Shown: in pieces, positions 1,725 to 62,639 of the stretch
Numbering within the stretch: the first letter of the stretch is position 1
Layout of the letters: every line of letters starts with the position of its first letter
NCBI GenBank assembly: GCA_016188115.1
Contig: JACPIK010000002.1
Span: 1,395,771-1,459,770 of the forward strand
Length of the DNA stretch: 64,000 nt
DNA from: Candidatus Woesearchaeota archaeon
Lineage (GTDB): Archaea > Nanobdellota > Nanobdellia > Woesearchaeales > GW2011-AR9
Direction: 5' to 3'
Made by a program: the position numbers and the translations under genes
Notes under the pieces: model-generated
Database searches by the model: none
Told to the model about the DNA's origin: nothing
Seen by the model: only the letters and a program-made list of their open reading frames with translations

Positions 1725-4559
1725 ATGAAAAGAAAAGAGGTTTATGCTGTAACAAAACTAGACAGAGTTCTCTTTCTCTGTTTATTACTCTTAACTCTCC
1801 TTTCTATTTCGGGTCTTGCTGTACCCATAAGGGATACAGTTTGTGAATTAGATGGTTCATTGCGTTGTTCTGCTCCTAATAGTGTCCTTGTTGGCTCAGC
1901 TGGAGCAAATCAGCCTCCTCCGTTTGTGCTAGGATATAATAATCAAGCTGTTAGTATTACCAATGCAGCATACCTCACATTTGAGAACCATCCTTTTGAA
2001 AGTCAAACGGGAAATCTTGCATTATGGTTTAAGTTAGATCCAATCATGGAACCAAGTATCACTGCTCCTGTAAAACTGTTAAAGATTTTTGAAACGGGAA
2101 ACAATCAAAATTATCTTGCTGTTCTCTATAAATCAAATGGGGAGATGGTTGTGCAATCAACTCGCAACGATAACCTCAATGTTCCAGCAAATAAACTACA
2201 ATGGAAATACATTGTCCACAAACCTCTTACTGTTGACGAATGGCATCACTTTACTTTTAGTTGGCAGCGCAACCAAGCAGGTATTCCTGATGATGTAAAA
2301 GTATTCATTGATGGTGAAGAACTGCGAAAGAGTAACTTTGTTTTTGAAGACAGTTCTGGTTTGAGAGCAACCTGGCAGCGAGGACATATTGCTAAATTGC
2401 CCTCTTTATTTCCCAATACGCGAGTTATTATTGCTAAAGGCTCTGCATCTTCAGGAAATACGCTCATAGATCAACTTAGTTTTTCACCAGAATATGTTAC
2501 TGCTGTTTGCCCTTATTGCGAAGTACTTGATGATGTTGTTCTCTATCAAAAACCTCTCTTTACAGATAAAGGGACTTATTCAACACTCCTTCCTTCCACT
2601 AAGCCACAACCCTCTGAGATCATCGAAAGCCTCTCTCTCACTGCAACCCCTGGAGAATATGAACCTACTAGTTTTGCTATTTTTACACAAAATGAACCTC
2701 TTAGAGATGTGACTGCCCAAATATCCTCTTTGAGATCTGCAGCAGGGAATTCTATTCCTATTGAGAATATCGATTTACGAGTTGTAAAAGTGTGGACTCG
2801 TGCTGGATTTGGAGCTAATTCTGCCGCAGGTTTTACATTAGGACAATCCAAACTTCAATGGGACGAATTTGGTATTAATGAAAAAGGCATTCTTGTCGCA
2901 GATATGTTGGTGTATGATGATGGTCAGGATCTAAAAGCATTAGAAAGATATAATCCCGATGGAACCTATACTGCTCCTCGCATAGCCACTCAACTTCGAA
3001 CTACTATTTCCGTTGGAGAATCCAAACAATTTTGGCTCACAATTCATGTTCCTCAAGATACTCCTGCTGGTCATTATCAAGGAGTTATCGCACTCCAAAG
3101 CCCATCTCTTGCAACTCCATTAACAATCCCTCTCTCTATAGAAGTTCTTCCATTCACTCTTGTTGAACCAAATCAAGTTCGCTCTATTTATTACCGCAAT
3201 TATCTTGGTCTAGGGGCTCTTCCTTCTGTGGGCGCTCCCGTATTTGAAAAAATTAGTGAAGAACGATATCGTGCTGAATTATCCGATATACGGGCACATG
3301 GTTTTAACGCAGTTCAGTTAAATTCGCAGCCAATGAGTGAAGAAGGGTTACGTCGTTCGCTTGAATTAGCCCGTAATGTTGGTTTTAGAATAGTTGATCA
3401 AACTGTTGCCAAAGGCGGTCGAGGCATGAGTATTGAAAGACAACTCGAACTCACACAACAGGCAGGTTTTGAGAAAATTCTTTATGCGTTTGATGAAAAA
3501 AATGAATATGCTCAAAACACCTTCGCCAACATTCTTGTTAAACTGTATGATTATCATCAAGCGGGCGCAAAAGTTATGAGTTCTTTAATTTGGCAGACTG
3601 CAGTAGAATATGAAAATCCTCAAAGTGTAATGTATGATCTAGAATATCAAAATGCCCCTTTACGAAACGTACGACCTGAAGTTGTAACCACTGGGCCTGA
3701 TTATGCAGTTATTGCTCTTCCAAATGAAGCGCATGAAGGTCGCGGCTTTGAGCGGTATTTAGATATCATCAATGGACGAGACGCACCAAGAATAAATGCA
3801 AAAGAAATGTATTATTGGCAAATAGGGATGCATAAACCATTTTACGCAAGGTATAATACGGGAGTTCTGGCATATTTCTTACGAAATTATATCTATGGTT
3901 TTAAGCCATATGCGTATTCCCATCAAGGCAGTCCCGGTTTTGGATATGGTTCTCCCTATGACACATTTGATAGTGCGTATATGTACGATGAACTAACTGA
4001 AAAAGGAGACGGGTATGTGGCTTCTCAAATGGCAGTCTATCCTTCAGCGCAAGGGCCAATCCCCACATTAGAATGGGAGGCTGTACGCGAGGGAATTGAT
4101 GATCTCAAATATTTAACAACACTCGACAATGCGTTAACTAGCTTAGAACAACAAGACCCTCGTCTCGCATCTCAACTTCGTGCAGAACTCAATACTGCGT
4201 TAGATCCATTTCGCCATCTAAACTCCTGGCGAATTATGTCGGGGGACGATTTTGACCAGTTACGCACAACCATTATCTCTCTTTTACGTCAAATTCCCGA
4301 ACCTATCTTGACTGCTATAGTTGAAGTGGATAATGTTAATGGTGTTCTAACTCAAAACAATAACAATATCATAGATAAAATAACTCTTGTTCAACAAGAT
4401 TCTCTCCAAGAAAATCAGCAAATCAATCTAGATGTTTGTTTGACATATCCTCAACTCATGCAACTTGCATCTCGTCTTGCTCAACAAGATGCACGCGGGG
4501 AAGATTTAGCCCCCATTAAACGAACCATTTTACGCACGTTTAATCTTGTCTGTTCTTAA
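1725..4559 (+). CDS. large secreted protein with an N-terminal LamG/concanavalin-A-like lectin domain
   Basis: 944 aa. N-terminal signal/TM 'VLFLCLLLLTLLSISGLA'. LamG-like block 'LALWFKLDP...WHHFTFSW...VKVFIDGEEL'. Remainder unassigned. Confidence 0.55.
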   Translation: MKRKEVYAVTKLDRVLFLCLLLLTLLSISGLAVPIRDTVCELDGSLRCSAPNSVLVGSAGANQPPPFVLGYNNQAVSITNAAYLTFENHPFESQTGNLALWFKLDPIMEPSITAPVKLLKIFETGNNQNYLAVLYKSNGEMVVQSTRNDNLNVPANKLQWKYIVHKPLTVDEWHHFTFSWQRNQAGIPDDVKVFIDGEELRKSNFVFEDSSGLRATWQRGHIAKLPSLFPNTRVIIAKGSASSGNTLIDQLSFSPEYVTAVCPYCEVLDDVVLYQKPLFTDKGTYSTLLPSTKPQPSEIIESLSLTATPGEYEPTSFAIFTQNEPLRDVTAQISSLRSAAGNSIPIENIDLRVVKVWTRAGFGANSAAGFTLGQSKLQWDEFGINEKGILVADMLVYDDGQDLKALERYNPDGTYTAPRIATQLRTTISVGESKQFWLTIHVPQDTPAGHYQGVIALQSPSLATPLTIPLSIEVLPFTLVEPNQVRSIYYRNYLGLGALPSVGAPVFEKISEERYRAELSDIRAHGFNAVQLNSQPMSEEGLRRSLELARNVGFRIVDQTVAKGGRGMSIERQLELTQQAGFEKILYAFDEKNEYAQNTFANILVKLYDYHQAGAKVMSSLIWQTAVEYENPQSVMYDLEYQNAPLRNVRPEVVTTGPDYAVIALPNEAHEGRGFERYLDIINGRDAPRINAKEMYYWQIGMHKPFYARYNTGVLAYFLRNYIYGFKPYAYSHQGSPGFGYGSPYDTFDSAYMYDELTEKGDGYVASQMAVYPSAQGPIPTLEWEAVREGIDDLKYLTTLDNALTSLEQQDPRLASQLRAELNTALDPFRHLNSWRIMSGDDFDQLRTTIISLLRQIPEPILTAIVEVDNVNGVLTQNNNNIIDKITLVQQDSLQENQQINLDVCLTYPQLMQLASRLAQQDARGEDLAPIKRTILRTFNLVCS

Positions 4560-4655: not shown

Positions 4656-4964
4656 ATGAAGATCCCAAAAACAATTACTCGTCTTTGTAAGCACTGTAAG
4701 AAGCATACTCAACAAAAAGTTGCTCTCAACAAACGTAAAGCTGCGAGCTCATTAAGTCGTGGCTCAAAAGTTCGATCTCGTTTACGTGGTCTTGCACGTG
4801 GAGTAGGAAGCCATGGACGTTATTCCAAACCTGCCGTTACTAAATTCAAACGTGCTGGTGCAAAGAATACCAAAAAAACTGATATTCGCTACACTTGCAA
4901 TGAATGTAAAAAATCTTCCTGTCAACCTTCTGGAATTCGTTCCAAACGGGTAGAATTAATCTAG
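4656..4964 (+). CDS. rpl44e: 50S ribosomal protein L44e
   Basis: 'MKIPKTITRLCKHCKKHTQQKV...YTCNECKK' is the zinc-ribbon L44e signature. TATA-like 'tttttaaata' about 30 bp upstream. Confidence 0.9.
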   Translation: MKIPKTITRLCKHCKKHTQQKVALNKRKAASSLSRGSKVRSRLRGLARGVGSHGRYSKPAVTKFKRAGAKNTKKTDIRYTCNECKKSSCQPSGIRSKRVELI

Positions 4965-18918: not shown

Positions 18919-19004
18919 GAGATCTACTCATTTTTTTGCCTATTGCCTAAAATACGTATATTATAGCAGTCTCAACTAGTATACAAAAGAGTAACATTTA
19001 TATA

Positions 19005-19160
19005 CGTGGTAGCCTATTCCGGTTCTGGGAAAAAGAGGTGATAATTTTTTTCCTGTCGGGAAGTTAGTCTTCGTATGAAGACCTCGTCCTTAGTTTCAAG
19101 GGGCTCCTTTAGAGATTCTACCACCCTCACCCCCTCTTTGGAGCCCCATTTTCTCTTTTC
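19005..19160 (+). ncRNA. candidate structured RNA or terminator-like element in a 390-bp intergenic region
   Basis: GTGGTAG (19006-12) pairs with CTACCAC (19118-24). GGGGCTCC (19100-07) pairs with GGAGCCCC (19140-47) and is followed by an oligo-T run. Inner hairpins 'gtcttcgtatgaagac' and 'ttccggttctgggaa'. Confidence 0.25.
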
Positions 19161-23281: not shown

Positions 23282-23330
23282 CCCGTCGAATTCGATGGGG
23301 TTAAAATCTAAAAGGGTCGATTTCGACCCC
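23282..23330. promoter_or_regulatory. two dyad-symmetric elements upstream of orc1/cdc6 (candidate ORB-like sites or operator)
   Basis: 'cccgtcgaattcgatgggg' (23282-23300) and 'gggtcgatttcgacccc' (23314-23330). Each is palindromic with G/C-run ends, 13 bp apart. Confidence 0.35.
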
Positions 23331-23389: not shown

Positions 23390-24457
23390 ATGTCTCTCTT
23401 CAAAGATATGCTCAAATCGGGCGAATCAGTGTTTCGCGACACTGTTCCACTCAATTTTGATTTTCAACCTAAAGTGGTCTTTGCCAGAGAAAATGAGCAA
23501 CAGCGTTTTGCCATCGCCATTCGACCTTTATTTGAAAATCATAACGGCCGTAATGTCTTTGTTTATGGGCCACCTGGCGTAGGGAAAACCACTGCGTGTA
23601 AACATGTTCTAAGAGAATTAGAAGAGACCACAGATGATATCATCCCTATGTATATCAACTGTTGGAAAGAAAATTCTACCTACAAGATTTTCTTTAAGTT
23701 ATGTGAAGATCTAGGCTATAAATTCATTCAGAGCAAAAAGACTCCTGAACTGTGGGCAATGATCATGCAACGCTTGAACAAAAAGAGTGTTGTGTTTATT
23801 TTTGATGAAATTGACAAACTTGAAGATACAGACTTTCTCTATACTATCCTTGAAGACATTTATCGCAAATCCATTTTTCTCATCACAAATTATCGTGATT
23901 CCTACAGTGAGATGGATGAACGCATTAGAAGCCGCCTCAATCCTGAGTTTCTTCATTTTCCTCCCTACACAGAAACGGAAATTGGTAAAATTCTAGAACA
24001 ACGTAAGGAATATGCCTTCGTACCTGGATGTTGGGACGATGATGCATTCAAAGAGATTGTCGAGCATTGCTCTGAAGACAAAGATGTGCGTGTTGGTCTC
24101 TATCTCATGCGTGAAACTGGAAACATTGCTGAAGAGAAAAGTTCGCGTAAAATTACCTGTCTTCATGTTGCTGCAGCCATTGCCAAAGCCCAAGAATTTC
24201 AAATCAAATCAAAAGAATCTCTTGAAGAGGATCTCCAAGTCATTCTCGAAATCATTAAAGACAACAATGGTAAAAAAATTGGTGAAATTTTCACATCATA
24301 TCAACAGATGGGCGGAGAACTCAGTTACAAAAGCTTTCAACGTCGAATTTTACGCTTGCAGGATGGGCGATATATCAATACAGAAAAAGTAACTGGAACC
24401 GAAGGCAATACCACTATTGTTCATTTTGCCTCACACAAAAAATTAACTGATTTCTAA
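23390..24457 (+). CDS. cdc6: Orc1/Cdc6 replication initiator
   Basis: AAA+ Walker A 'VYGPPGVGKTT', Walker B 'IFDEIDKL', and a C-terminal winged-helix region. Confidence 0.85.
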   Translation: MSLFKDMLKSGESVFRDTVPLNFDFQPKVVFARENEQQRFAIAIRPLFENHNGRNVFVYGPPGVGKTTACKHVLRELEETTDDIIPMYINCWKENSTYKIFFKLCEDLGYKFIQSKKTPELWAMIMQRLNKKSVVFIFDEIDKLEDTDFLYTILEDIYRKSIFLITNYRDSYSEMDERIRSRLNPEFLHFPPYTETEIGKILEQRKEYAFVPGCWDDDAFKEIVEHCSEDKDVRVGLYLMRETGNIAEEKSSRKITCLHVAAAIAKAQEFQIKSKESLEEDLQVILEIIKDNNGKKIGEIFTSYQQMGGELSYKSFQRRILRLQDGRYINTEKVTGTEGNTTIVHFASHKKLTDF

Positions 24458-45865: not shown

Positions 45866-46645
45866 TTACTTTCGAATCTCGGCCCCACCGCTTGGCACAA
45901 AGCTCATAATCTCATCTAAATCTGTCAGCCCTAATTTATTCTTAATTTTTTTTCCAGTATCACTTTTCTTCTCTTTACCTGAAACCAAAACTACATACTT
46001 GTCTGTTTTTGCGGCAACTGCTTGCACCGGACCGCCAACAACCTGTCCCTCTACATTACCTATCGCATACTCCATTTTAGGATGGTAAAATTCACGCTTT
46101 CCATAGATCATAAAGCTTCCTTTACTCATATATTCTCCGGGTTTTGCCTCTTTACTTACCTGATCAGGTTTAACACTAAACACCTCTGCAGCACCTAATC
46201 CTAATTTCCACGCTTTCGAGAAAACGGCAACCGCTTGCGCTGTCTCTTGAATTGTCTTCTCGCCTGCCTGTTGTCCATTCTTAACTACAAAAAATGGAGA
46301 TCCTGGTGCTTCCGTATGAAGTACTATGTCTTCTTTATCAAGATGTTTCTTAATGATAATCTCATTAGTGGTTGCATCCTTACCACCAATACACAAAAAA
46401 TTCTCTGAAGAAAAAAACCAATGAAATTTCTCATACCATTCTTTCTTGCGCACAACTTTGGATTGTTTTTTCTCTTCTTCTGCAAAGAATTTCGCTTCTT
46501 CAGTTCGTAATTTCTCCAATTTTTTCTGCGTATCTAGGATGATTGCTTGTGCGCCTAAAATCTTCTTCTTTGATTTTTTCGCGAGATCAAAATAAATTCC
46601 TGCATTTTCATCTACAGATTTCTGCAGGTCGAATTCCATTTGCAT
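45866..46645 (-). CDS. stand-alone NFACT-R (DUF814) domain protein (Rqc2/FbpA C-terminal-like)
   Basis: 'FSSENFLCIGGKDATTNEIIIKKHLDKEDIVLHTEAPGSPFFVV' is the DUF814 signature. No NFACT-N domain is encoded upstream. Confidence 0.55.
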   Translation of the reverse strand: MQMEFDLQKSVDENAGIYFDLAKKSKKKILGAQAIILDTQKKLEKLRTEEAKFFAEEEKKQSKVVRKKEWYEKFHWFFSSENFLCIGGKDATTNEIIIKKHLDKEDIVLHTEAPGSPFFVVKNGQQAGEKTIQETAQAVAVFSKAWKLGLGAAEVFSVKPDQVSKEAKPGEYMSKGSFMIYGKREFYHPKMEYAIGNVEGQVVGGPVQAVAAKTDKYVVLVSGKEKKSDTGKKIKNKLGLTDLDEIMSFVPSGGAEIRK

Positions 46646-46735
46646 ACACTACTAAAAGAGAAAAGAGGTTAAAAATGTTTAGTTAGTTAACTAATATCTC
46701 ACTATTAAAGTTACCATAAAACTCTCACAATTCTT

Positions 46736-47857
46736 CTATTTGCCTGCTGCTTCTATTTTGTCAAATCCTAATGCCACAAAACCCAATAGATTCCATGCGC
46801 CTTCTTTACCATTGCGTTCCATCCAAGGAGCATACCCTGCATTAATACCTAAAGGCACTATTCCACCTACTTTAGCTCGTAGATTAATTTCTAACCCTAA
46901 TTGAACCGGCATCTCAAGTGCGGCTGCTCCTTCTACTGCGGGTCTTTGGGTTGTTAATCCCCAAACTCCTGCGCCAACACGGTAATGAGGATGAAGAAGT
47001 ATGCTTGCCGCTGCACGTGCATCTAAAAACAAAGGAGTTCGAACTTCATTAAGATTTGTTCCTGGAAATGGTATTTGTGGGCTGACAAATGAACCTCCTC
47101 TCCAAGCATTATATTCATCTGCATGCCATTCGCCTCCTAATCGTACATCTCCCGTGAGATTAAGTCTTTGTCCAGTTCCAAGTTGGGCATGAAATAAACT
47201 CCCTACTGTATGTTGATAATCTGAAAGTTCTGGTGAATGTGATCGATATCCCGGACGAAATTCTTCTTCAACAAGAAGTCGTAATTCAAATCCCTGACGA
47301 GTGCCAAAAATAAGATCTGCATCCATTTCTCTAAATTTAAGATCCAGTTGCGGTCGTACCAAAAGATGATTGCTTGGAAGCTCTCGCGAGGTATCCGAAG
47401 TTTCATCATACATCTTATACGCGCCAAACACACTCGCGCGCGCATCAAATAATCCTGTTGTTAGCGTGACAAAAGTAGTCATACCTGCTTCATGAGCAGT
47501 ACTTTCTTCCTCTTTTTTTCTAGAACCGTGCTCATAATCCCGATAATTACCCCATGATATGTAATTCATACGCACATCTAATCCTGTGCCAATCACACCT
47601 CGGTGATGAAATTGCGCAAAACCACTTAACGAATCTGCCTGAATTAAAAGATCCCATGGACTTTGTTCCAATTCTGTGTAATAATTAAGTCGTACAACCG
47701 GCGTAAATGTTCCCTCACCATTTAGCGGCGTATCTGCCCCTAATACTGCCATAAAATGATAAGGTTGTTTTGGTTCATACGTTTGCGCAGACGCGGTGTT
47801 CAAAGTCACAGTAGCCGTAGTAGTGAACAGTAATGCAGTTGGAAGAGAATAATTCAT
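46736..47857 (-). CDS. secreted beta-rich protein of unknown function, higher GC
   Basis: Signal peptide 'LLFTTTATVTLNTASA'. Gly/aromatic-rich strands. No TM segment. Confidence 0.45.
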   Translation of the reverse strand: MNYSLPTALLFTTTATVTLNTASAQTYEPKQPYHFMAVLGADTPLNGEGTFTPVVRLNYYTELEQSPWDLLIQADSLSGFAQFHHRGVIGTGLDVRMNYISWGNYRDYEHGSRKKEEESTAHEAGMTTFVTLTTGLFDARASVFGAYKMYDETSDTSRELPSNHLLVRPQLDLKFREMDADLIFGTRQGFELRLLVEEEFRPGYRSHSPELSDYQHTVGSLFHAQLGTGQRLNLTGDVRLGGEWHADEYNAWRGGSFVSPQIPFPGTNLNEVRTPLFLDARAAASILLHPHYRVGAGVWGLTTQRPAVEGAAALEMPVQLGLEINLRAKVGGIVPLGINAGYAPWMERNGKEGAWNLLGFVALGFDKIEAAGK

Positions 47858-47967
47858 TTTTTTCTAATTCATCACCCAATTTATTAAGATTGTTTCAATT
47901 TTACAGACAAAAGAATTTGAAAATAACTATCCCAAGATATATAAATTAAAACAGTATTGTCTCTCTC

Positions 47968-48717
47968 ATGGGTAAAATAGTCTCCATAGGTGGGGGTTCA
48001 ATTGGCTTTCGACGTACTCCTCAAACTACCAAAATCGATCAAGAGATTATCAACCTTTCTGGTAAAAAGAAACCCAAAGTGCTTTTTATCCCTACTGCAA
48101 CTCATGATTCTGCTGAATACGTTGAAGCATTTCATAATCATTACGAAAAACGCTTAGGATGCGATGTCAAATCATTACTTCTCTACGATGCAAAGTATAA
48201 ACATATTGAGATAGAAAAGATGATTTTAAACGCCGATATTATCTATGTTGGTGGTGGAAACACCCTTAATATGATGAAGACTTGGCGTAAGTTTGGTGTT
48301 GACAAACTTCTTCACAAAGCCTACGAAAAAAACATTGTATTATGTGGCTTAAGTGCCGGTTCGATTTGTTGGTATAACCAAGGCAACTCTGATTCTTGGC
48401 GTGACCACAACAAAAAAGCACCATTAATCCTCGTTAAAGGGCTTAATCTTGTTAACGCAGTAGGTTGTCCTCATTACGACAACGAAAAAGACCGCAAGCC
48501 ATTTTTGAAGAAAATGATGCAACATCATACTGGTGTTGCCATTGCATTTGATAGCTGTGCCGCCTTTGAAATAGTTGGTGATTGGTATCGCGTGATTACA
48601 TCAAAAAAAGGTGTCGGTTGTTACAAAGTATACTGGAAAGAAGGCAAGTACTATTGCGAAAAAATAAGACAACGAAAAGAGTTTATGCCGCTGAAGGAAT
48701 TGCTTGTAAAAGGATAG
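47968..48717 (+). CDS. S51-family peptidase (dipeptidase E / cyanophycinase-like)
   Basis: 'IYVGGGNTLNMM' and 'LCGLSAGSICW' (nucleophile Ser). Confidence 0.65.
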   Translation: MGKIVSIGGGSIGFRRTPQTTKIDQEIINLSGKKKPKVLFIPTATHDSAEYVEAFHNHYEKRLGCDVKSLLLYDAKYKHIEIEKMILNADIIYVGGGNTLNMMKTWRKFGVDKLLHKAYEKNIVLCGLSAGSICWYNQGNSDSWRDHNKKAPLILVKGLNLVNAVGCPHYDNEKDRKPFLKKMMQHHTGVAIAFDSCAAFEIVGDWYRVITSKKGVGCYKVYWKEGKYYCEKIRQRKEFMPLKELLVKG

Positions 48718-48789
48718 ATCCCTCGAAACGTTTAAATCCCCTAAATTATTCTTATAATTGATGAAAAGAGAGGCTAGATCATTCTGGTT

Positions 48790-49896
48790 ATGCTCTTGTT
48801 TTTAACTCCTCTTGCTTTTGCAGTGCCTGACATCACTTTTGTTAATCCAACTCCAAGTAATAATGCATGCACTGGTTCGAATACGTCTTTTATCGTGAAT
48901 ACAACCATTACGGAAGCGAATCTAGGGTCAGTAACGTATTCTTTTAATGGAAGTAATGAGAGTTATGAATATTATAATGACAGCTTGGTTTTAATGTTGA
49001 ATTTTGATAATGCGAGTGGTTTGGGGGAGAATGATACCTATGTTGTTGATATGAGCAGGTATGGAAATAACGCAACAGCGTACGGCGGGCTTTTAGCGAA
49101 CGGGAATGGGAAGTATAGCGGGGCATTTAATTTCGATGGAAATGATGATTATGTGAATCTTAGTACAGATACTAATTTTGCCCAGCTCCAAGTAAACATG
49201 ACCATTACTGGCTGGTTTAATGAGAACGGAGCAAATGGCAACCCTACAATTTTTTCTCAATACAAAAGCGTGGGAAGCCATCAACTAGTAAAATTAGTGC
49301 GCCTCGATAGCGACAAAGTGAATTATTTTACATCCACTTCAAACGGAGGTTGGCAAATGCAAACTCATACTACGCCGTACACAGCCAACATCTGGAATTT
49401 TTTTGCTATTATTGTCTCAGGAAACTATACCAATCCCTCGTTGGCTATCTGGCTGAACGGCGAGAAACAGTCTTTTAGTCTTTCGGCGCTAAGTACGACA
49501 CCTGATACAACGGTTCTGATCCAAATCGGCTGGTCACAACGGCAGCTAGGAGGCGAGCAGTTTGGTGGTCTGATAGATGAGATACGAGTTTTTAACAAGA
49601 GCGTAAGTGATACTGAGATTTATGGGTTGTATGCTGGCAATCTTCGAAAGTATAACTCCAATGCCTGGGAGTTGTATATCAATCAGGCCTATAACGTGAC
49701 AGACGGATTACAGAATGGCCCCTATAATTATTTTGTCAGCGCGACCAATAATACTGGAAGCGGAACGTTAAGTAGTGTTCGAATTGTTAACATTGGTCCT
49801 GCTTCTGCTGCGCCAGAATGGAGTGATTATTGCGTATTATTGATACTTTCATTAGTCATTGGTGGATTTTTTATGATAAGAAAGAGAGTGCTTTAG
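48790..49896 (+). CDS. surface protein with a LamG/concanavalin-A-like domain and a C-terminal TM anchor
   Basis: Signal 'MLLFLTPLAFA'. LamG block 'GAFNFDGNDDYVNL...MTITGWFN...IDEIRVFN'. C-terminal 'VLLILSLVIGGFFMIRKR'. Confidence 0.6.
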   Translation: MLLFLTPLAFAVPDITFVNPTPSNNACTGSNTSFIVNTTITEANLGSVTYSFNGSNESYEYYNDSLVLMLNFDNASGLGENDTYVVDMSRYGNNATAYGGLLANGNGKYSGAFNFDGNDDYVNLSTDTNFAQLQVNMTITGWFNENGANGNPTIFSQYKSVGSHQLVKLVRLDSDKVNYFTSTSNGGWQMQTHTTPYTANIWNFFAIIVSGNYTNPSLAIWLNGEKQSFSLSALSTTPDTTVLIQIGWSQRQLGGEQFGGLIDEIRVFNKSVSDTEIYGLYAGNLRKYNSNAWELYINQAYNVTDGLQNGPYNYFVSATNNTGSGTLSSVRIVNIGPASAAPEWSDYCVLLILSLVIGGFFMIRKRVL

Positions 49897-49975
49897 TAAT
49901 GAAAAGCTTTGGTTACGAACAGAAAATCAACACAAAAAAAGTGACTACCATTTATTCTCTGCGACTTTTCAGAAC

Positions 49976-50365
49976 TTATCGTATCATTAAGACTTCACTA
50001 AAACCCCTAAAATCTTCATCAGCTGTAACTGCCATTGCAGATAAGACTTGAGCTGTGTGTAAAACAAAAGCATCAGCTAGGCCAAACTTAGTTCTTTCCT
50101 TACGTATTTTGGTATGGATTTTCCCCACTTCTTCTGCAAATTTGACATCCATGGTATAAATAGAAGAGATAGATAATATAATTTTTCTCGCTTCGCTAAA
50201 ATTCATCTCTTTTTTCTCAAAAAAGCTACTTAATTCTGCAATGGTGATTATGTTAGTATAAATCTTATTCTCATCATTTTCTAGGATAGATTTGACTTTT
50301 TCACCTTTTTTACTTCCATTAAAATACTCAACCCAGGCACTTGCATCTACCACAAATGAAGTCAT
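49976..50365 (-). CDS. vapC: PIN-domain toxin VapC
   Basis: 'VVDASAWVEYF...' PIN acidic residues. Overlaps the upstream antitoxin by 4 bp. Confidence 0.7.
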   Translation of the reverse strand: MTSFVVDASAWVEYFNGSKKGEKVKSILENDENKIYTNIITIAELSSFFEKKEMNFSEARKIILSISSIYTMDVKFAEEVGKIHTKIRKERTKFGLADAFVLHTAQVLSAMAVTADEDFRGFSEVLMIR

Positions 50366-50562
50366 TCTAACTGTCCCCTCAATTTTGATTCTTTAGAAAA
50401 AGAACCCATTCCCTTGCATAAGCCAAATCCACTTTTTGCTAGTTTTCGAATTTCTATTTTAACCGTTTGATTCTCCACTAATCCTTCTTCTTCAACTATT
50501 TCTCGTGGGATAGTAACCATTAATGATCCGCCGATTTTACGAGTTTTTGATATTGTTTCCAT
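50362..50562 (-). CDS. vapB: AbrB/SpoVT-type antitoxin VapB
   Basis: 'KIGGSLMVTIPREIVEEEGL' is a swapped-hairpin AbrB-like motif, 66 aa. Confidence 0.65.
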   Translation of the reverse strand: METISKTRKIGGSLMVTIPREIVEEEGLVENQTVKIEIRKLAKSGFGLCKGMGSFSKESKLRGQLE

Positions 50563-50721
50563 ATATAACTCATAATATAACTTATTATATATAAAGTTTT
50601 CTTTGAAATTTATCCTTATTACACCAAATCTTATTTTCAGTCTTAGACGTATTCAAAAATAACGTCGTTTCCTAATCTAGAGATCAAAAAAATACCTCCT
50701 CTTGTTGTTGAATTCTTTAAT

Positions 50722-50856
50722 CTGCTAATTCCACTTGTGTATTCACAAGTGGTTTACTGCAATTCTAACATTGCTTGGAATTAGCAGGGTCAGAAATTCG
50801 ACCCGAGCGAAGCGAGCATGCCGTCCGGTCTATTGACCGGCGGTGGTCGAATTTCT
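50722..50856. repeat. two adjacent ~65-nt palindromic modules, each with a 12-bp terminal inverted repeat and an inner hairpin with a TATT loop
   Basis: Module 1 (50722-50787): CTGCTAATTCCA...TGGAATTAGCAG, with inner CCACTTGTG-TATT-CACAAGTGG. Module 2 (50792-50856): AGAAATTCGACC...GGTCGAATTTCT, with inner CCG(T)CCGGTC-TATT-GACCGGCGG. A very AT-rich tract lies immediately upstream (50563-50700). Confidence 0.5.
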
Positions 50857-50942
50857 TTGACAGAGGAAGGAAGAACGATATGGGTCACTTGAGTTGATTT
50901 AAAGTAGTAATTATTAAAAGTAAACTAAAATATTCTCCATTT

Positions 50943-51272
50943 ATGCAAGACCTTCCATTCAAACCGCGCATGCATGTGTTCATCTGTGTGAATGATCGTA
51001 CTGGACAACCCAACGATCCTAAGCCTAGTTGTGGTCCTACTATATCCACAGAAATGTACAAAGAAGTTAAGCAATGGACGCGTACACAAGGGTGGACAAA
51101 TCAAGTCTATGTTACTAAAGTAAGTTGTCTTGGCTTCTGTAATCCTGAAGGTGGTGTGATGTGCGTCTGGCCACAGGGGCGATTTGTCAAGGGTATACAA
51201 ACAGTTGATGATATGAAAAAAGTCATCTCTGAAGAATATGCAAAAGTTATGAAAATATCTCAGAGTAGGTAG
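50943..51272 (+). CDS. thioredoxin-like [2Fe-2S] ferredoxin
   Basis: 'HVFICVNDR...CGP...CLGFCNPEGGVMCVWPQG' follows the Cys pattern of the Trx-like ferredoxin family. Confidence 0.55.
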   Translation: MQDLPFKPRMHVFICVNDRTGQPNDPKPSCGPTISTEMYKEVKQWTRTQGWTNQVYVTKVSCLGFCNPEGGVMCVWPQGRFVKGIQTVDDMKKVISEEYAKVMKISQSR

Positions 51273-55651: not shown

Positions 55652-55767
55652 AAATTATTAATGAGAAGAAGTGCTTTATATTATTTTAGTAAATGCATTG
55701 ACATTTTGGATAAAATCCTGCATTTACTATATAGTAAACGAAATGGCGTTAAGACTTTTTTCGTTTA

Positions 55768-56295
55768 CTATTTGTGGGGGTTCTCTTGTGCCAATTCAAC
55801 TGAGGTCTTCAATCCCGCTCGTTTTCGGCAGAAGTTTATCCAGAGGTTATAGGTGGGGGCCATCCAAATAGAAAGCATCCCTGCTGATTCAATAGAGTTC
55901 TCAACTTTTTCACGATGAACTTCACCAGTGGTGATATAGTCGGCAATGGCGACAATTCCTGCATAAAACGGAGTTTGAAACGTATTAAACGCAATGAGAT
56001 CTGCAGCACGTTCTCGTAGGAAACGATACGAAGCGTCCTTCACAGCTCCAAATTGATGATACCAATGATCTTGCCATTTGCCATAATAACGTCCTGTCGC
56101 GTAATTGACTCCAAAGCTTTGTGAGCGTGAAGCCAGCATTCCTGTGATTGATAAACCAGAGTATAAGTCTAGGGGAACGCCTATTGCTAATGAATAGCTA
56201 ATACTTGCAAGCCGATCGATCTTTTTGTATTTGCGTTCGGTTTGGGTGACGAGAGAATCAATGGACATTTTACAAGAATTATTTTCCCAGTTCAC
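55768..56295 (-). CDS. hypothetical protein (last gene of a six-gene minus-strand block)
   Basis: 175 aa. Aromatic-rich, no motif. Confidence 0.35.
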   Translation of the reverse strand: MNWENNSCKMSIDSLVTQTERKYKKIDRLASISYSLAIGVPLDLYSGLSITGMLASRSQSFGVNYATGRYYGKWQDHWYHQFGAVKDASYRFLRERAADLIAFNTFQTPFYAGIVAIADYITTGEVHREKVENSIESAGMLSIWMAPTYNLWINFCRKRAGLKTSVELAQENPHK

Positions 56296-62215: not shown

Positions 62216-62403
62216 TTCCCATCACCTTCCTCTTCCAACATCTTTCTCAATGCATACTCCAACGCATGAGACGTGCTGCGGAATCGACCAGTCAATATTC
62301 CTTCGTCTACTTTACGCAACGTCGCTTCATCAACAGTAATGCTTATTTTTGCTTTCATGTTTAGTGGTGATTTGGTTTTACATAGCGTCTTTCGGGTTAT
62401 CAA
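62212..62403 (-). CDS. ribbon-helix-helix (CopG/Arc-like) small DNA-binding protein
   Basis: 'KAKISITVDEATLRKVDE' is an RHH beta-strand. Its stop overlaps the kinase start. Confidence 0.45.
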   Translation of the reverse strand: MITRKTLCKTKSPLNMKAKISITVDEATLRKVDEGILTGRFRSTSHALEYALRKMLEEEGDGK

Positions 62404-62516
62404 TATCGTATTGCTTCTATCGTTCAGGTCCCGGATGGAGCCTCCCCTTGAACTCTTCTGATGTTTACTCTCTCAACCCTCACCTTTGGACGCTATGTAT
62501 TCTCAAAAGTGTATAC

Positions 62517-62546
62517 TATCCTACTTTATCCTACTTTATCCTACTA
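62517..62546. repeat. 10-bp tandem repeat 'atcctacttt' x3
   Basis: Two perfect units and one degenerate copy in the divergent intergenic region. Confidence 0.8.
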
Positions 62547-62639
62547 TTTTTAAAGCTTTTGCAAATATTCTCACTTCTTAGTGACAACAAAACCAAAGAT
62601 TAATAAACCTCTTATTAATCCAGAATTCCGAAAAGAAAA

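Follow-up and report, generated by a model that had tools for sequence, protein, structure and literature searches.

An apparently strain-specific double palindrome beside a vapBC operon in a Woesearchaeal genome, possibly the template of a structured minus-strand RNA

The spacer at 50563-50942 of the 64,000-nucleotide stretch analysed here (the window) contains two adjacent palindromic modules, and it was confirmed that these are real and lie far beyond chance expectation. The spacer separates vapB (minus strand, ATG at 50562) from a plus-strand ORF (ATG at 50943) for a 109-aa, Cys-rich (2Fe-2S)-ferredoxin-like protein, and the structured element within it spans 50695-50870, a non-coding and hairpin-rich tract of approximately 176 bp. 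Our leading explanation, to which we assign a probability of roughly one in three, is that the element is a structure transcribed from the minus strand, giving an orphan RNA of about 180-200 nt that would also insulate vapBC from upstream transcription. The view that the element is a replication origin is not supported.

An earlier note on this DNA had described two modules of 66 and 65 nt set 4 nt apart, and these were recovered at 50722-50787 and 50792-50856, joined by the linker GGTC at 50788-50791. Module 1 is a Y-shaped palindromic unit whose terminal arms, CTGCTAATTCCA at 50722-50733 and TGGAATTAGCAG at 50776-50787, are complementary at 12 of 12 positions. It also holds an inner hairpin of 9 bp (CCACTTGTG-TATT-CACAAGTGG, 50731-50752) and a small extra hairpin (GCAAT-TCTAAC-ATTGC, 50759-50774). 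Module 2 is laid out as its mirror image, with arms AGAAATTCGACC (50792-50803) and GGTCGAATTTCT (50845-50856) that are likewise complementary at 12 of 12 positions, an inner hairpin of 9 bp carrying one bulged T (CCGTCCGGTC-TATT-GACCGGCGG, 50821-50843), and an unpaired stretch of 17 nt (50804-50820) that includes GCGAAGC. The note's account of perfect 12-bp terminal arms, of 9-bp inner hairpins with a common TATT loop, of a mirror-like arrangement and of a junction dyad, GGGTC(agaaattc)GACCC, was borne out throughout; the dyad occupies 50787-50804, where G50787 and the linker face 50800-50804. The sequences of the two modules are unrelated to each other. Module 1 comprises 23 base pairs with no G.U pair on either strand and module 2 comprises 23-24 with 0-1 G.U, and with so few G.U among the 46-47 pairs in total, neither strand is favoured by the structure. 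The local GC content of module 2 reaches 54-68%, compared to approximately 38% for the genome and 30-38% for the surroundings.

Both modules are enclosed by an outer stem of 8 bp, absent from the earlier note, in which CCTCCTCT at 50695-50702 is predicted to pair with AGAGGAAGG at 50862-50870 around one bulged A (minus-strand MFE and centroid folds, DNA fold). Segment A (GTTGAATTCTTT, 50707-50718) is an alternative partner of the left arm of module 2 at 50792-50803, and the extended helix covers 27 nt at 78% complementarity, with three G.U pairs gained on the plus strand only (counted by eye). The heptamer GTTGAAT is found at 50707-50713, outside module 1. It was noted that the arm centres are 53-54 bp apart, about five helical turns, and that AATTC recurs at 50727, 50761 and 50795 with a spacing of 34 nt. 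A small protein was rejected, as an ORF check of the element turned up nothing with a plausible start or promoter.

The significance of this structure was assessed against shuffled and simulated sequences. The RNA fold of the minus strand reached a z-score of -7.5 to -7.7, that of the plus strand -6.1 to -6.5 and the DNA fold of the element -7.5, and none of these values was equalled by any shuffle. The minimum free energies were -72.3 kcal/mol for the minus strand and -76.6 kcal/mol for the plus strand. The window has four perfect inverted repeats with arms of 12 bp or more and a spacer of 15-110 nt, compared to 0.54 expected, and none of 100 simulated windows contained two adjacent perfect 12-bp inverted repeats. 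The element region ranked first for structure among all intergenic regions of the window.

The promoters on either side were examined with a position weight matrix (PWM) built from 59 upstream regions of the window, in which the promoter motif usually starts 34-35 nt before the ATG (median 35). The vapB promoter occupies 50563-50599 on the minus strand, with the BRE/TATA sequence AAACTTTATATATA running from 50599 to 50586 and its first base 37 nt upstream of the ATG; it scored 10.9, compared to a median of 8.0 for real genes, and was the top promoter match of the region. The promoter of the ferredoxin-like gene (AGTAATTATTAAAA, plus strand, 50906-50919) scored 5.9, starts 37 nt before the ATG at 50943 and is homologous to the TATA region of relatives. 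Because both TATA motifs start 37 nt before their ATGs, the vapB and ferredoxin-like mRNAs are leaderless, and the position of the latter promoter places the modules upstream of it and therefore outside the 5' UTR. A riboswitch or 5' leader of a flanking gene was rejected on these grounds, since each gene has its own proximal promoter and leaderless start. Two overlapping direct repeats of 12-14 nt, ATATAACT(C/T)AT(A/T)AT, at 50563-50576 and 50575-50588 overlap the vapB TATA/BRE and may be a candidate VapB operator.

From these features we infer that the element may be read from the minus strand. Transcription would start at about 50874-50888, within the AT-rich promoter region common to the divergent ferredoxin-like gene, and the polymerase would pass through module 2 and then module 1. 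The RNA would fold into two Y-shaped domains, each with a three-way junction, clamped by the outer 8-bp stem, and would stop at a U7 tract two bases past that stem, with a T5-containing hairpin further downstream. Such a unit would halt minus-strand transcription ahead of the self-regulated leaderless vapBC promoter and, in doing so, would act as an insulator or terminator.

Several observations argue for this minus-strand transcript. The fold is at its most significant on the minus strand, with both the 5' and the 3' end paired, and a T7 run (A7 on the plus strand) lies at 50686-50692, beginning two bases past the 3' side of the outer stem, as a candidate archaeal U-tract terminator. Runs of at least seven come about once per kb of the window, however, so that the T7 run alone is modest evidence. 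Downstream of it, at 50646-50666 on the minus strand, a small hairpin (GACGT / ACGTC) with a T5 run in its loop could, as read from the sequence, serve as an additional terminator ahead of the vapB promoter. A published account describes archaeal termination as dependent on U-tracts and aCPSF1 and not on hairpins (PMC8716108). At the other end of the putative transcript, two minus-strand TATA-like matches were found, TTACTTTTAATAAT from 50923 to 50910 (PWM 4.8, top 0.5% of positions) and TACTACTTTAAATC from 50909 to 50896 (PWM 3.2, top 1.2% of positions). They lie about 35 nt upstream of the outer stem, a spacing typical of the genome, and imply a start at about 50888 or 50874, 4-18 nt before the stem. 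Their scores reach only the lower quartile of real promoters, and the matches are weak evidence because the divergent gene's AT-rich promoter covers the same ground, and DNA of that composition can be expected to yield hits of this kind. Plus-strand promoter candidates near the element scored at most 2.7.

Module 2 as a GC-rich island in AT-rich DNA, the paired ends, the length of about 180-200 nt, the U7 tract directly after the terminal stem and the TATA-like site at a proper distance are all features that the element has in common with small structured archaeal ncRNAs. Unlike those RNAs, it has no Rfam match, no C/D or H/ACA boxes and no recognised K-turn; it lacks G.U pairs, homologues and covariation, and its promoter is weak. 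The near absence of G.U pairs is typical of DNA palindromes or of very young elements. The window itself offers a further comparison. Hairpin pairs of near-equal size with perfect stems, each pair with its own sequence, are found in intergenic DNA at other transcript ends (55687-55771, z -7.0, and 23283-23329), and since such pairs sit at transcript ends here, perfect stems are compatible with a role at the RNA level. A unit of promoter, hairpin and U-tail at approximately 19020-19160 has the same transcription-unit style. The element resembles these tandem hairpin terminators in being an intergenic pair of near-equal, perfect-stem units followed by a T-run on the minus strand; it differs in having branched units of about 65 nt, not simple hairpins, and in lying between divergent genes, so that no annotated gene needs a terminator at this place. 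The design is also far more elaborate than termination needs.

Transcription in the opposite direction would make the element part of a leader of the ferredoxin-like gene, started from the palindromic vapB TATA, or of an sRNA ending at AATTTCTTTG, the T-rich 3' arm of module 2. We consider this plus-strand reading improbable. The vapB TATA does score 6.0 when read on the plus strand, with a start near 50619, the alternative helix of 50707-50733 with 50776-50802 gains its three G.U pairs on that strand only, and the plus-strand MFE is slightly the more stable. Against it, the genome is leaderless and a separate promoter serves the ferredoxin-like gene 37 nt before its ATG, as it does in relatives, where the upstream spacer is only 28-139 nt; no Shine-Dalgarno-like sequence precedes the ATG, and no run of at least five T follows the structure on the plus strand. 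Known RNA classes were also considered and rejected. Neither a T-loop nor a D-loop was present for a tRNA, split tRNA or permuted tRNA, and ARAGORN found no tRNA; the conserved motifs of SRP RNA and RNase P RNA were absent, while Rfam detects these RNAs in relatives; an H/ACA RNA was dropped because the internal loop is one-sided and no ACA box occurs, and a C/D box RNA because the boxes are absent.

We sought to place the element among related sequences. Rfam gave no match at the gathering score anywhere in the window and only noise at E-values up to 10 in 50400-51100, while the same library detected RNase P RNA, LSU rRNA and one tRNA in related loci as a control. The 135-nt core, run through nhmmer and blastn and as a covariance model, matched only itself in the window and in 27 related loci (238 kb). 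No match was obtained for exact-arm patterns in IMG/VR and the JGI metagenomes or for the element in blastn against plasmids and phages, and six-frame peptides of the element compared with a collection of 5.8 billion proteins disclosed no spurious ORF that would betray another copy. No homologue, and hence no covariation, came out of these searches. The 64-kb window, part of a genome of 1.47 Mb, contains no second copy, even at low stringency, and no dispersed repeat family of any kind.

Compared to the closest relative, the element belongs to an insertion of approximately 2.1 kb (48750-50886) that also carries a LamG-domain gene (48790-49896, plus strand), vapC (49976-50365, minus strand) and vapB (50362-50562, minus strand), all three identified with Pfam. 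Homology to that relative stops at about 48665-48750 and restarts at about 50887, at CTTGAGTTGATT (blastn, local alignment and P0002 gene order); the outer stem ends 16 nt from this right junction, and the element thus forms the right edge of the LamG-vapBC insertion. It was absent from the closest relative and from 13 other syntenic loci, and neither the 14 GTDB loci nor the closest contigs with the ferredoxin-like gene have it, their spacers upstream of that gene being 28-139 nt. Homologues of vapC with 60-71% identity have short, unstructured regions upstream of vapB, and the LamG relatives in the JGI metagenomes were only 24-30% identical and uninformative. These comparisons suggest that the element is lineage-specific or strain-specific. 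No recombinase, integrase or RAYT-type transposase gene was present among the ten neighbours tested.

The earlier note had offered the region as a replication origin, next to the alternatives of a MITE pair or small structured RNAs, with the modules as initiator-binding sites and the AT-rich tract as the unwinding element, a reading that we now regard as very improbable. Archaeal origins carry at least two initiator-binding repeats (ORB or mini-ORB), usually inverted around an unwinding element, and they adjoin orc1/cdc6 at a position conserved among relatives. The element resembles them in that AT-rich DNA lies beside dyad symmetry, and the low GC content of the tract stood up to analysis (14-30% across 50550-50700, and 14-16% at the vapB promoter); its proposed role in unwinding did not, as the tract is explained by the vapB TATA/BRE. 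Repeated ORB-type elements are absent from the region. Half-sites said to be ORB-like gained no statistical support, since the mini-ORB TTCCAGTGGAAA with at most two mismatches occurs four times in the window compared to 9.2 expected and not at all near the region, and no arm sequence recurs in the window outside the pair it forms, diverged copies being absent too. The Pfam-confirmed orc1/cdc6 gene (23390-24457) is 27 kb away. A likeness between the element and the dyads upstream of that gene (23283-23329) rests on GGTCGAWWT, which has six matches compared to 1.8 expected; only four of the six are independent sites once each palindrome is counted once, so the excess is within chance, and the link between the element and these dyads was dropped. 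GC skew is lacking in many archaea, and here the cumulative skew falls steadily through both 50.7 and 23.3 kb, where an extremum had been sought, with no turn in the 64-kb window. The closest relative has nothing of this region, although its flanking genes are otherwise syntenic.

A close rival of the minus-strand RNA is a MITE-, REP- or BIME-like DNA repeat, which we regard as only slightly less probable. The element would be non-autonomous and composed of two unlike palindromic units that mirror each other; further copies would exist elsewhere in the genome or the community, an enzyme encoded at another locus would move or recombine them, and the hairpins would matter as DNA, in cruciform or single-stranded form, and not as RNA. 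MITEs occur in several copies with unrelated flanks, bear terminal inverted repeats and a target-site duplication, and are small, non-coding and intergenic; REP and BIME systems comprise hundreds of palindromic units per genome together with a RAYT-type transposase, the units being usually 20-40 nt and bacterial. The element is similarly small (135-176 bp), non-coding and set between two promoters, its stems are perfect and strand-symmetric, and like a BIME it joins two palindromic units of similar size in opposite orientation through a short linker. It is lineage-specific, no relative has it at the syntenic site, and it lies at a synteny break, 16 nt from the edge of the toxin-antitoxin indel. 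One Woesearchaeal genome has been reported to carry 105 MITEs per Mb (PMC11602168). The assembly data also point to this reading. In three samples, Logan contigs (k = 31) break off at 50742/50745, and in two samples a contig begins at 50832, leaving a gap of 89 nt; such breaks are the signature of a sequence of about 149 nt (50713-50861) that occurs in more than one context, and this sequence coincides with the two-module unit. The breaks lie about 30 nt inside both ends and fit a multi-copy or polymorphic sequence, other causes being possible; an RNA gene would leave them unexplained. Other Logan breaks map to a conserved stretch of 36 nt that relatives have in common, and hairpins alone do not break these assemblies, because a 24-kb contig passes through the perfect hairpins at 55.7 kb. 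However, the element has one copy in the 64 kb and no match in the related loci, plasmids, phages and metagenomes searched, the GC content of module 2 is far above that of the genome, and no transposase or RAYT has been recognised here. The outermost arms, on the left of module 1 and on the right of module 2, lack complementarity, so no terminal inverted repeat spans the element; the 8-bp outer stem is countable as a short terminal repeat, yet no duplicated flank lies beside it as a target-site duplication. The breaks fall in or next to both TATT loops, a coincidence estimated at about 4% if the element is a repeat, which hints instead at a hairpin-related or polymorphism cause.

These break points also bear on whether the element could be a DNA-level recombination or protein-binding site tied to movement of toxin-antitoxin cassettes, attC-like but without an integron, an explanation that we consider unlikely. 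Paired perfect palindromes would on this view flag the spots at which small cassettes of this type enter or leave the genome. The breaks in both TATT loops could reflect a real rearrangement or heterogeneity at hairpin loops, and an inversion of exactly 50743-50831 would give both break points to the base. A simple deletion between the TATT loops was rejected, its predicted break points being one base off those seen, as was an attL/attR core, which would make the Logan contigs overlap whereas a gap was found. Synteny with the closest relative extends over at least 18 kb with two differences, and each of them involves a toxin-antitoxin cassette and a perfect-palindrome pair: the window has LamG-vapBC and the element where the relative lacks both, and the PPIase-AlaE spacer holds the hairpin pair 55687-55771 in the window compared to a HepT-MNT pair in the relative. 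At locus L026, an Xre/MbcA/ParS-type antitoxin gene has a nested, GC-rich perfect palindrome directly beside it. The spacings of the arm centres and of AATTC count in the same direction. Integron attC sites are imperfect palindromes of 57-141 nt that fold as branched hairpins and often lie beside toxin-antitoxin cassettes; the element has the branched folding in common with them and with the T-shaped terminal hairpins of parvovirus-type replicons, and the toxin-antitoxin neighbourhood in common with attC. Unlike an integron attC, it has no R'' (RYYYAAC) or R' (GTTRRRY) core at the arms by eye, the GTTGAAT noted above lying outside module 1, no integrase or recombinase nearby and no array of cassettes in one orientation. 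The other vapBC homologues have short, unstructured upstream regions, and the three cases are anecdotes with no statistic behind them. A diversity-generating retroelement hairpin was also rejected, as no reverse transcriptase was noticed and the LamG gene is not adjacent.

For the annotation of this closed genome, the outcome is that a false origin candidate has been removed and that the spacer next to orc1/cdc6 stays the better one. It would be a long shot, though one these loci raise, that small mobile toxin-antitoxin cassettes of DPANN archaea use paired perfect palindromes as recombination sites or leave them behind as scars. Should the element be a DNA repeat, a reduced genome would here contain a palindromic element of an unusual, two-unit kind, which would also mark how small accessory cassettes move in these episymbionts. 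To our knowledge, almost no ncRNAs are known from DPANN archaea beyond the universal ones. That the element is transcribed at all, from which strand and between which ends, and any action in trans, are here our reading of the DNA; if the minus-strand RNA exists, a DPANN archaeon would have an orphan structured RNA particular to the strain, positioned directly before a toxin-antitoxin operon.

We found that the spacer at 50563-50942, which separates the divergent vapB gene (50362-50562, minus strand) and ferredoxin-like gene (50943-51272, plus strand), contains two palindromic modules. The vapB gene encodes an AbrB/MazE-type antitoxin, with the PIN-domain vapC gene (49976-50365, minus strand) downstream of it, and the ferredoxin-like gene is a 109-aa Cys-rich ORF whose public name is (2Fe-2S) ferredoxin domain protein. 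Module 1 (50722-50787) and module 2 (50792-50856) are joined by the 4-nt linker GGTC and are each bounded by perfect 12-bp arms, with inner hairpins of CCACTTGTG-TATT-CACAAGTGG and CCGTCCGGTC-TATT-GACCGGCGG, the latter having one bulged T. Because module 1 also carries a small third hairpin (50759-50774), both units are Y-shaped. They are arranged as mirror images, the 17-23-nt unpaired stretch in either module pointing toward the junction. The module sizes, arms, TATT-loop hairpins and mirror layout described in the earlier note were exact to the base. That description overlooked an outer stem (50695-50702, CCTCCTCT; 50862-50870, AGAGGAAGG) enclosing both modules, and the full structured unit, hereafter the element, is therefore 176 nt long. 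The unpaired stretch of module 2 also contains GCGAAGC (50807-50813), known as a DNA mini-hairpin of unusual stability; chance alone would place about three copies in the window, and it may carry no meaning.

The structure exceeds chance. For RNA folds of the two strands, z ranged from -6.1 to -7.7, and for the DNA fold z was -7.5; no shuffle was as good in either case. Four perfect inverted repeats with arms of 12 bp or longer and a spacer of 15-110 nt were counted in the window compared to 0.54 expected, and two adjacent repeats of this kind were seen in none of the simulated windows. When all intergenic spacers of the window were scanned, 50563-50942 ranked as the most structured. Only 0-1 G.U pairs occur among the 46-47 bp of both modules, and either strand can therefore form the same structure.

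The surrounding promoters were mapped with a matrix trained on 59 upstream regions of the window (consensus AAAATTTATATAAC). This motif begins 34-35 nt upstream of most ATGs, and the mRNAs are therefore essentially leaderless. The best match in the region, with a score of 10.9, is the vapB promoter (50599 to 50586, minus strand), with two direct repeats of 12-14 nt overlapping it, while the ferredoxin-like gene promoter (50906-50919, plus strand) scores 5.9. On this map the AT-rich tract, previously proposed as a DNA unwinding element, is predicted to be the promoter and operator of vapB. Since the modules lie between the two promoters, they belong to no UTR and cannot be a riboswitch or leader.

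Chief among the concrete results is a negative one: the element is very probably not an origin. That reading, which had been offered from the sequence alone, is now extremely improbable, having failed wherever it could be tested. There was no repeated initiator-binding motif in the region, and the mini-ORB consensus had no match nearby, the total for the window being below the chance expectation. The supposed likeness to two dyads preceding orc1/cdc6 was reduced to GGTCGAWWT, found at 4 independent sites compared to approximately 1.8 expected. No GC-skew turn was seen at the region, orc1/cdc6 lies 27 kb from the element, the element region is missing in relatives with syntenic flanks, and the tract put forward for unwinding is explained as a promoter. 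The tandem dyads themselves (CCCGTCGAATTCGATGGG and GGGTCGATTTCGACCC, 23283-23329) follow an amino-acid-kinase-family gene, 57-103 nt beyond its stop codon, and precede the ATG of orc1/cdc6 by about 60 nt. In the first dyad there is a G.T pair functional on the plus strand only, and there is no skew turn at this position; these dyads may serve not as origin boxes but as 3'-end hairpins.

Relatives identified through the flanking proteins were metagenome-assembled Woesearchaeota and Nanoarchaeota (DPANN) genomes. The sequence itself was contained in Logan samples SRR12113419-22, one of which is the source data for the 'Ca. Azoamicus agrarius' genome (bioRxiv 10.1101/2024.02.19.580942), and 'NC_groundwater ... 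Ag' in the name of related locus L002 was read as an agricultural groundwater site. In 5 GTDB loci a divergent NFACT-R gene lies about 55 nt from the ferredoxin-like gene; its homologue in the window is at 45866-46645, and, relative to more distantly related genomes, the two genes are separated there by about 4.3 kb (46690-50920). The closest relative (L019/L047), whose ferredoxin-like protein is 78% identical, has the order NFACT-R, a 379-aa gene, S51 peptidase, 139 nt, and the ferredoxin-like gene. Alignment against it placed an insertion of about 2.1 kb at approximately 48750-50886. This segment comprises a LamG-domain gene, vapCB and the element, and its right junction lies 16 nt from the end of the outer stem.

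Searches of 238 kb of related loci (nhmmer, blastn and a covariance model), of the DNA upstream of vapBC homologues, of plasmids and phages, and of the rest of the window revealed no further copy or remnant of the element. The exact-arm patterns had no match in IMG/VR or JGI metagenomes, and Rfam and ARAGORN returned no match; in related loci, that same Rfam library picked up RNase P RNA, rRNA and a tRNA. The element is thus an orphan. In one marine relative (L029, a TARA scaffold), an archaeal RNase P RNA gene (3427-3823) was located directly 3' of the vapBC homologue, with the end of a 23S rRNA gene 1.4 kb upstream.

Our leading but tentative reading (probability about 0.35) is that the element is a structure transcribed from the minus strand, yielding an orphan RNA that is about 180-200 nt long and stops at a U7 tract. 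At the least, such a structure would shield the self-regulated vapBC promoter from transcription arriving from upstream. The outer stem would pair its 5' and 3' ends, a T7 run begins two bases past this stem, and a T5-loop hairpin follows ahead of the vapB promoter. Module 2 also stands out as a GC island (54-68% GC). About 35 nt ahead of the stem are two TATA-like sites, but both are weak (scores 4.8 and 3.2) and fall where the divergent gene has its AT-rich promoter region. Other hairpin pairs of near-equal size with perfect stems occur at gene 3' ends in the window (55687-55771 and 23283-23329), so such stems are compatible with an RNA-level role in this genome. An RNA from the plus strand is quite unlikely. 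Elsewhere in the window, a separate candidate small RNA (18985-19160, plus strand) lies within a 392-nt spacer past a T7 terminator, with a strong TATA AACATTTATATACG, about 140 nt, a hairpin GGGGCTCC...GGAGCCCC and then ATTTTCTCTTTTCTCT; it had no Rfam match.

The element may also be a MITE/BIME-like DNA repeat, a close rival that we rate only slightly lower and that is compatible with the minus-strand RNA, since repeats can be transcribed. The strand-symmetric pairing is consistent with a repeat, as are the lineage-specific occurrence and the position at an indel edge next to a toxin-antitoxin pair. Such elements have precedent in the group, one Woesearchaeal genome having 105 MITEs per Mb in a published census (PMC11602168). 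The 64-kb window, however, is free of dispersed repeat families; tRNA genes are likewise absent from it. Also in line with a repeat, independent Logan assemblies (k=31) break off inside the element: in three samples the contigs stop at 50742, 50742 and 50745, and a 24-kb contig in two samples begins at 50832, leaving an 89-nt gap (L016-L018, L001, L045; SRR12113419-21). As flanking contigs extend 30 nt into sequence having more than one context, the would-be shared block is 50713-50861, coincident with the two-module unit. Two controls bear this out: a Logan break at 46413/46436 falls inside a 36-nt stretch conserved among relatives, and the perfect hairpins at 55.7 kb are read through by the 24-kb contig. 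However, both breaks are in or at most 2 bases from the two TATT loops, which a repeat does not predict and which we estimate as a coincidence of about 4%. Simple loop-to-loop deletion was rejected because it puts the break points one base away from those observed. Inverting exactly 50743-50831 would reproduce them, although no inverted repeats flank that segment. The gap may stem from an element in several copies, from a core that is polymorphic or invertible, or from hairpin-related sequencing dropout.

It is unlikely that the element serves the movement of toxin-antitoxin cassettes as a site for recombination or protein binding, and the association behind this reading is anecdotal. The synteny conserved with the closest relative extends over at least 18 kb and is interrupted by two differences only, both pairing a toxin-antitoxin cassette with two perfect palindromes: LamG-vapBC and the element are missing from the relative, and the PPIase-AlaE spacer holds a hairpin pair in the window and a HepT-MNT pair in the relative. 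The hairpins in that spacer of the window, separated by 1 nt, have arms of 11 bp (55687-55729) and 13 bp (55731-55771) and share TAGTAAA half-sites; the pair overlaps the stop codon of AlaE and gave a minus-strand fold z of -7.0. In related locus L026, a 77-nt GC-rich nested perfect palindrome (4811-4887, -49.5 kcal/mol) adjoins an Xre/MbcA/ParS-type antitoxin gene, and stem-closed modules lie directly upstream of the ferredoxin-like gene in L005 (2651-2758, 108 nt) and L021 (3447-3510, 64 nt); these palindromic modules are unrelated. It was also noted that a 424-nt divergent spacer of the window contains three tandem copies of ATCCTACTTT (62518-62547), the last being ATCCTACTAT, beside a 121-nt stretch (62379-62499) with an 11-12-bp closing stem and a fold z of only -1.5.

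The element is real and unusual in form, but nothing in the data demonstrates a novel type of system. As an orphan, it belongs either to the small structured RNAs or to the palindromic repeats.
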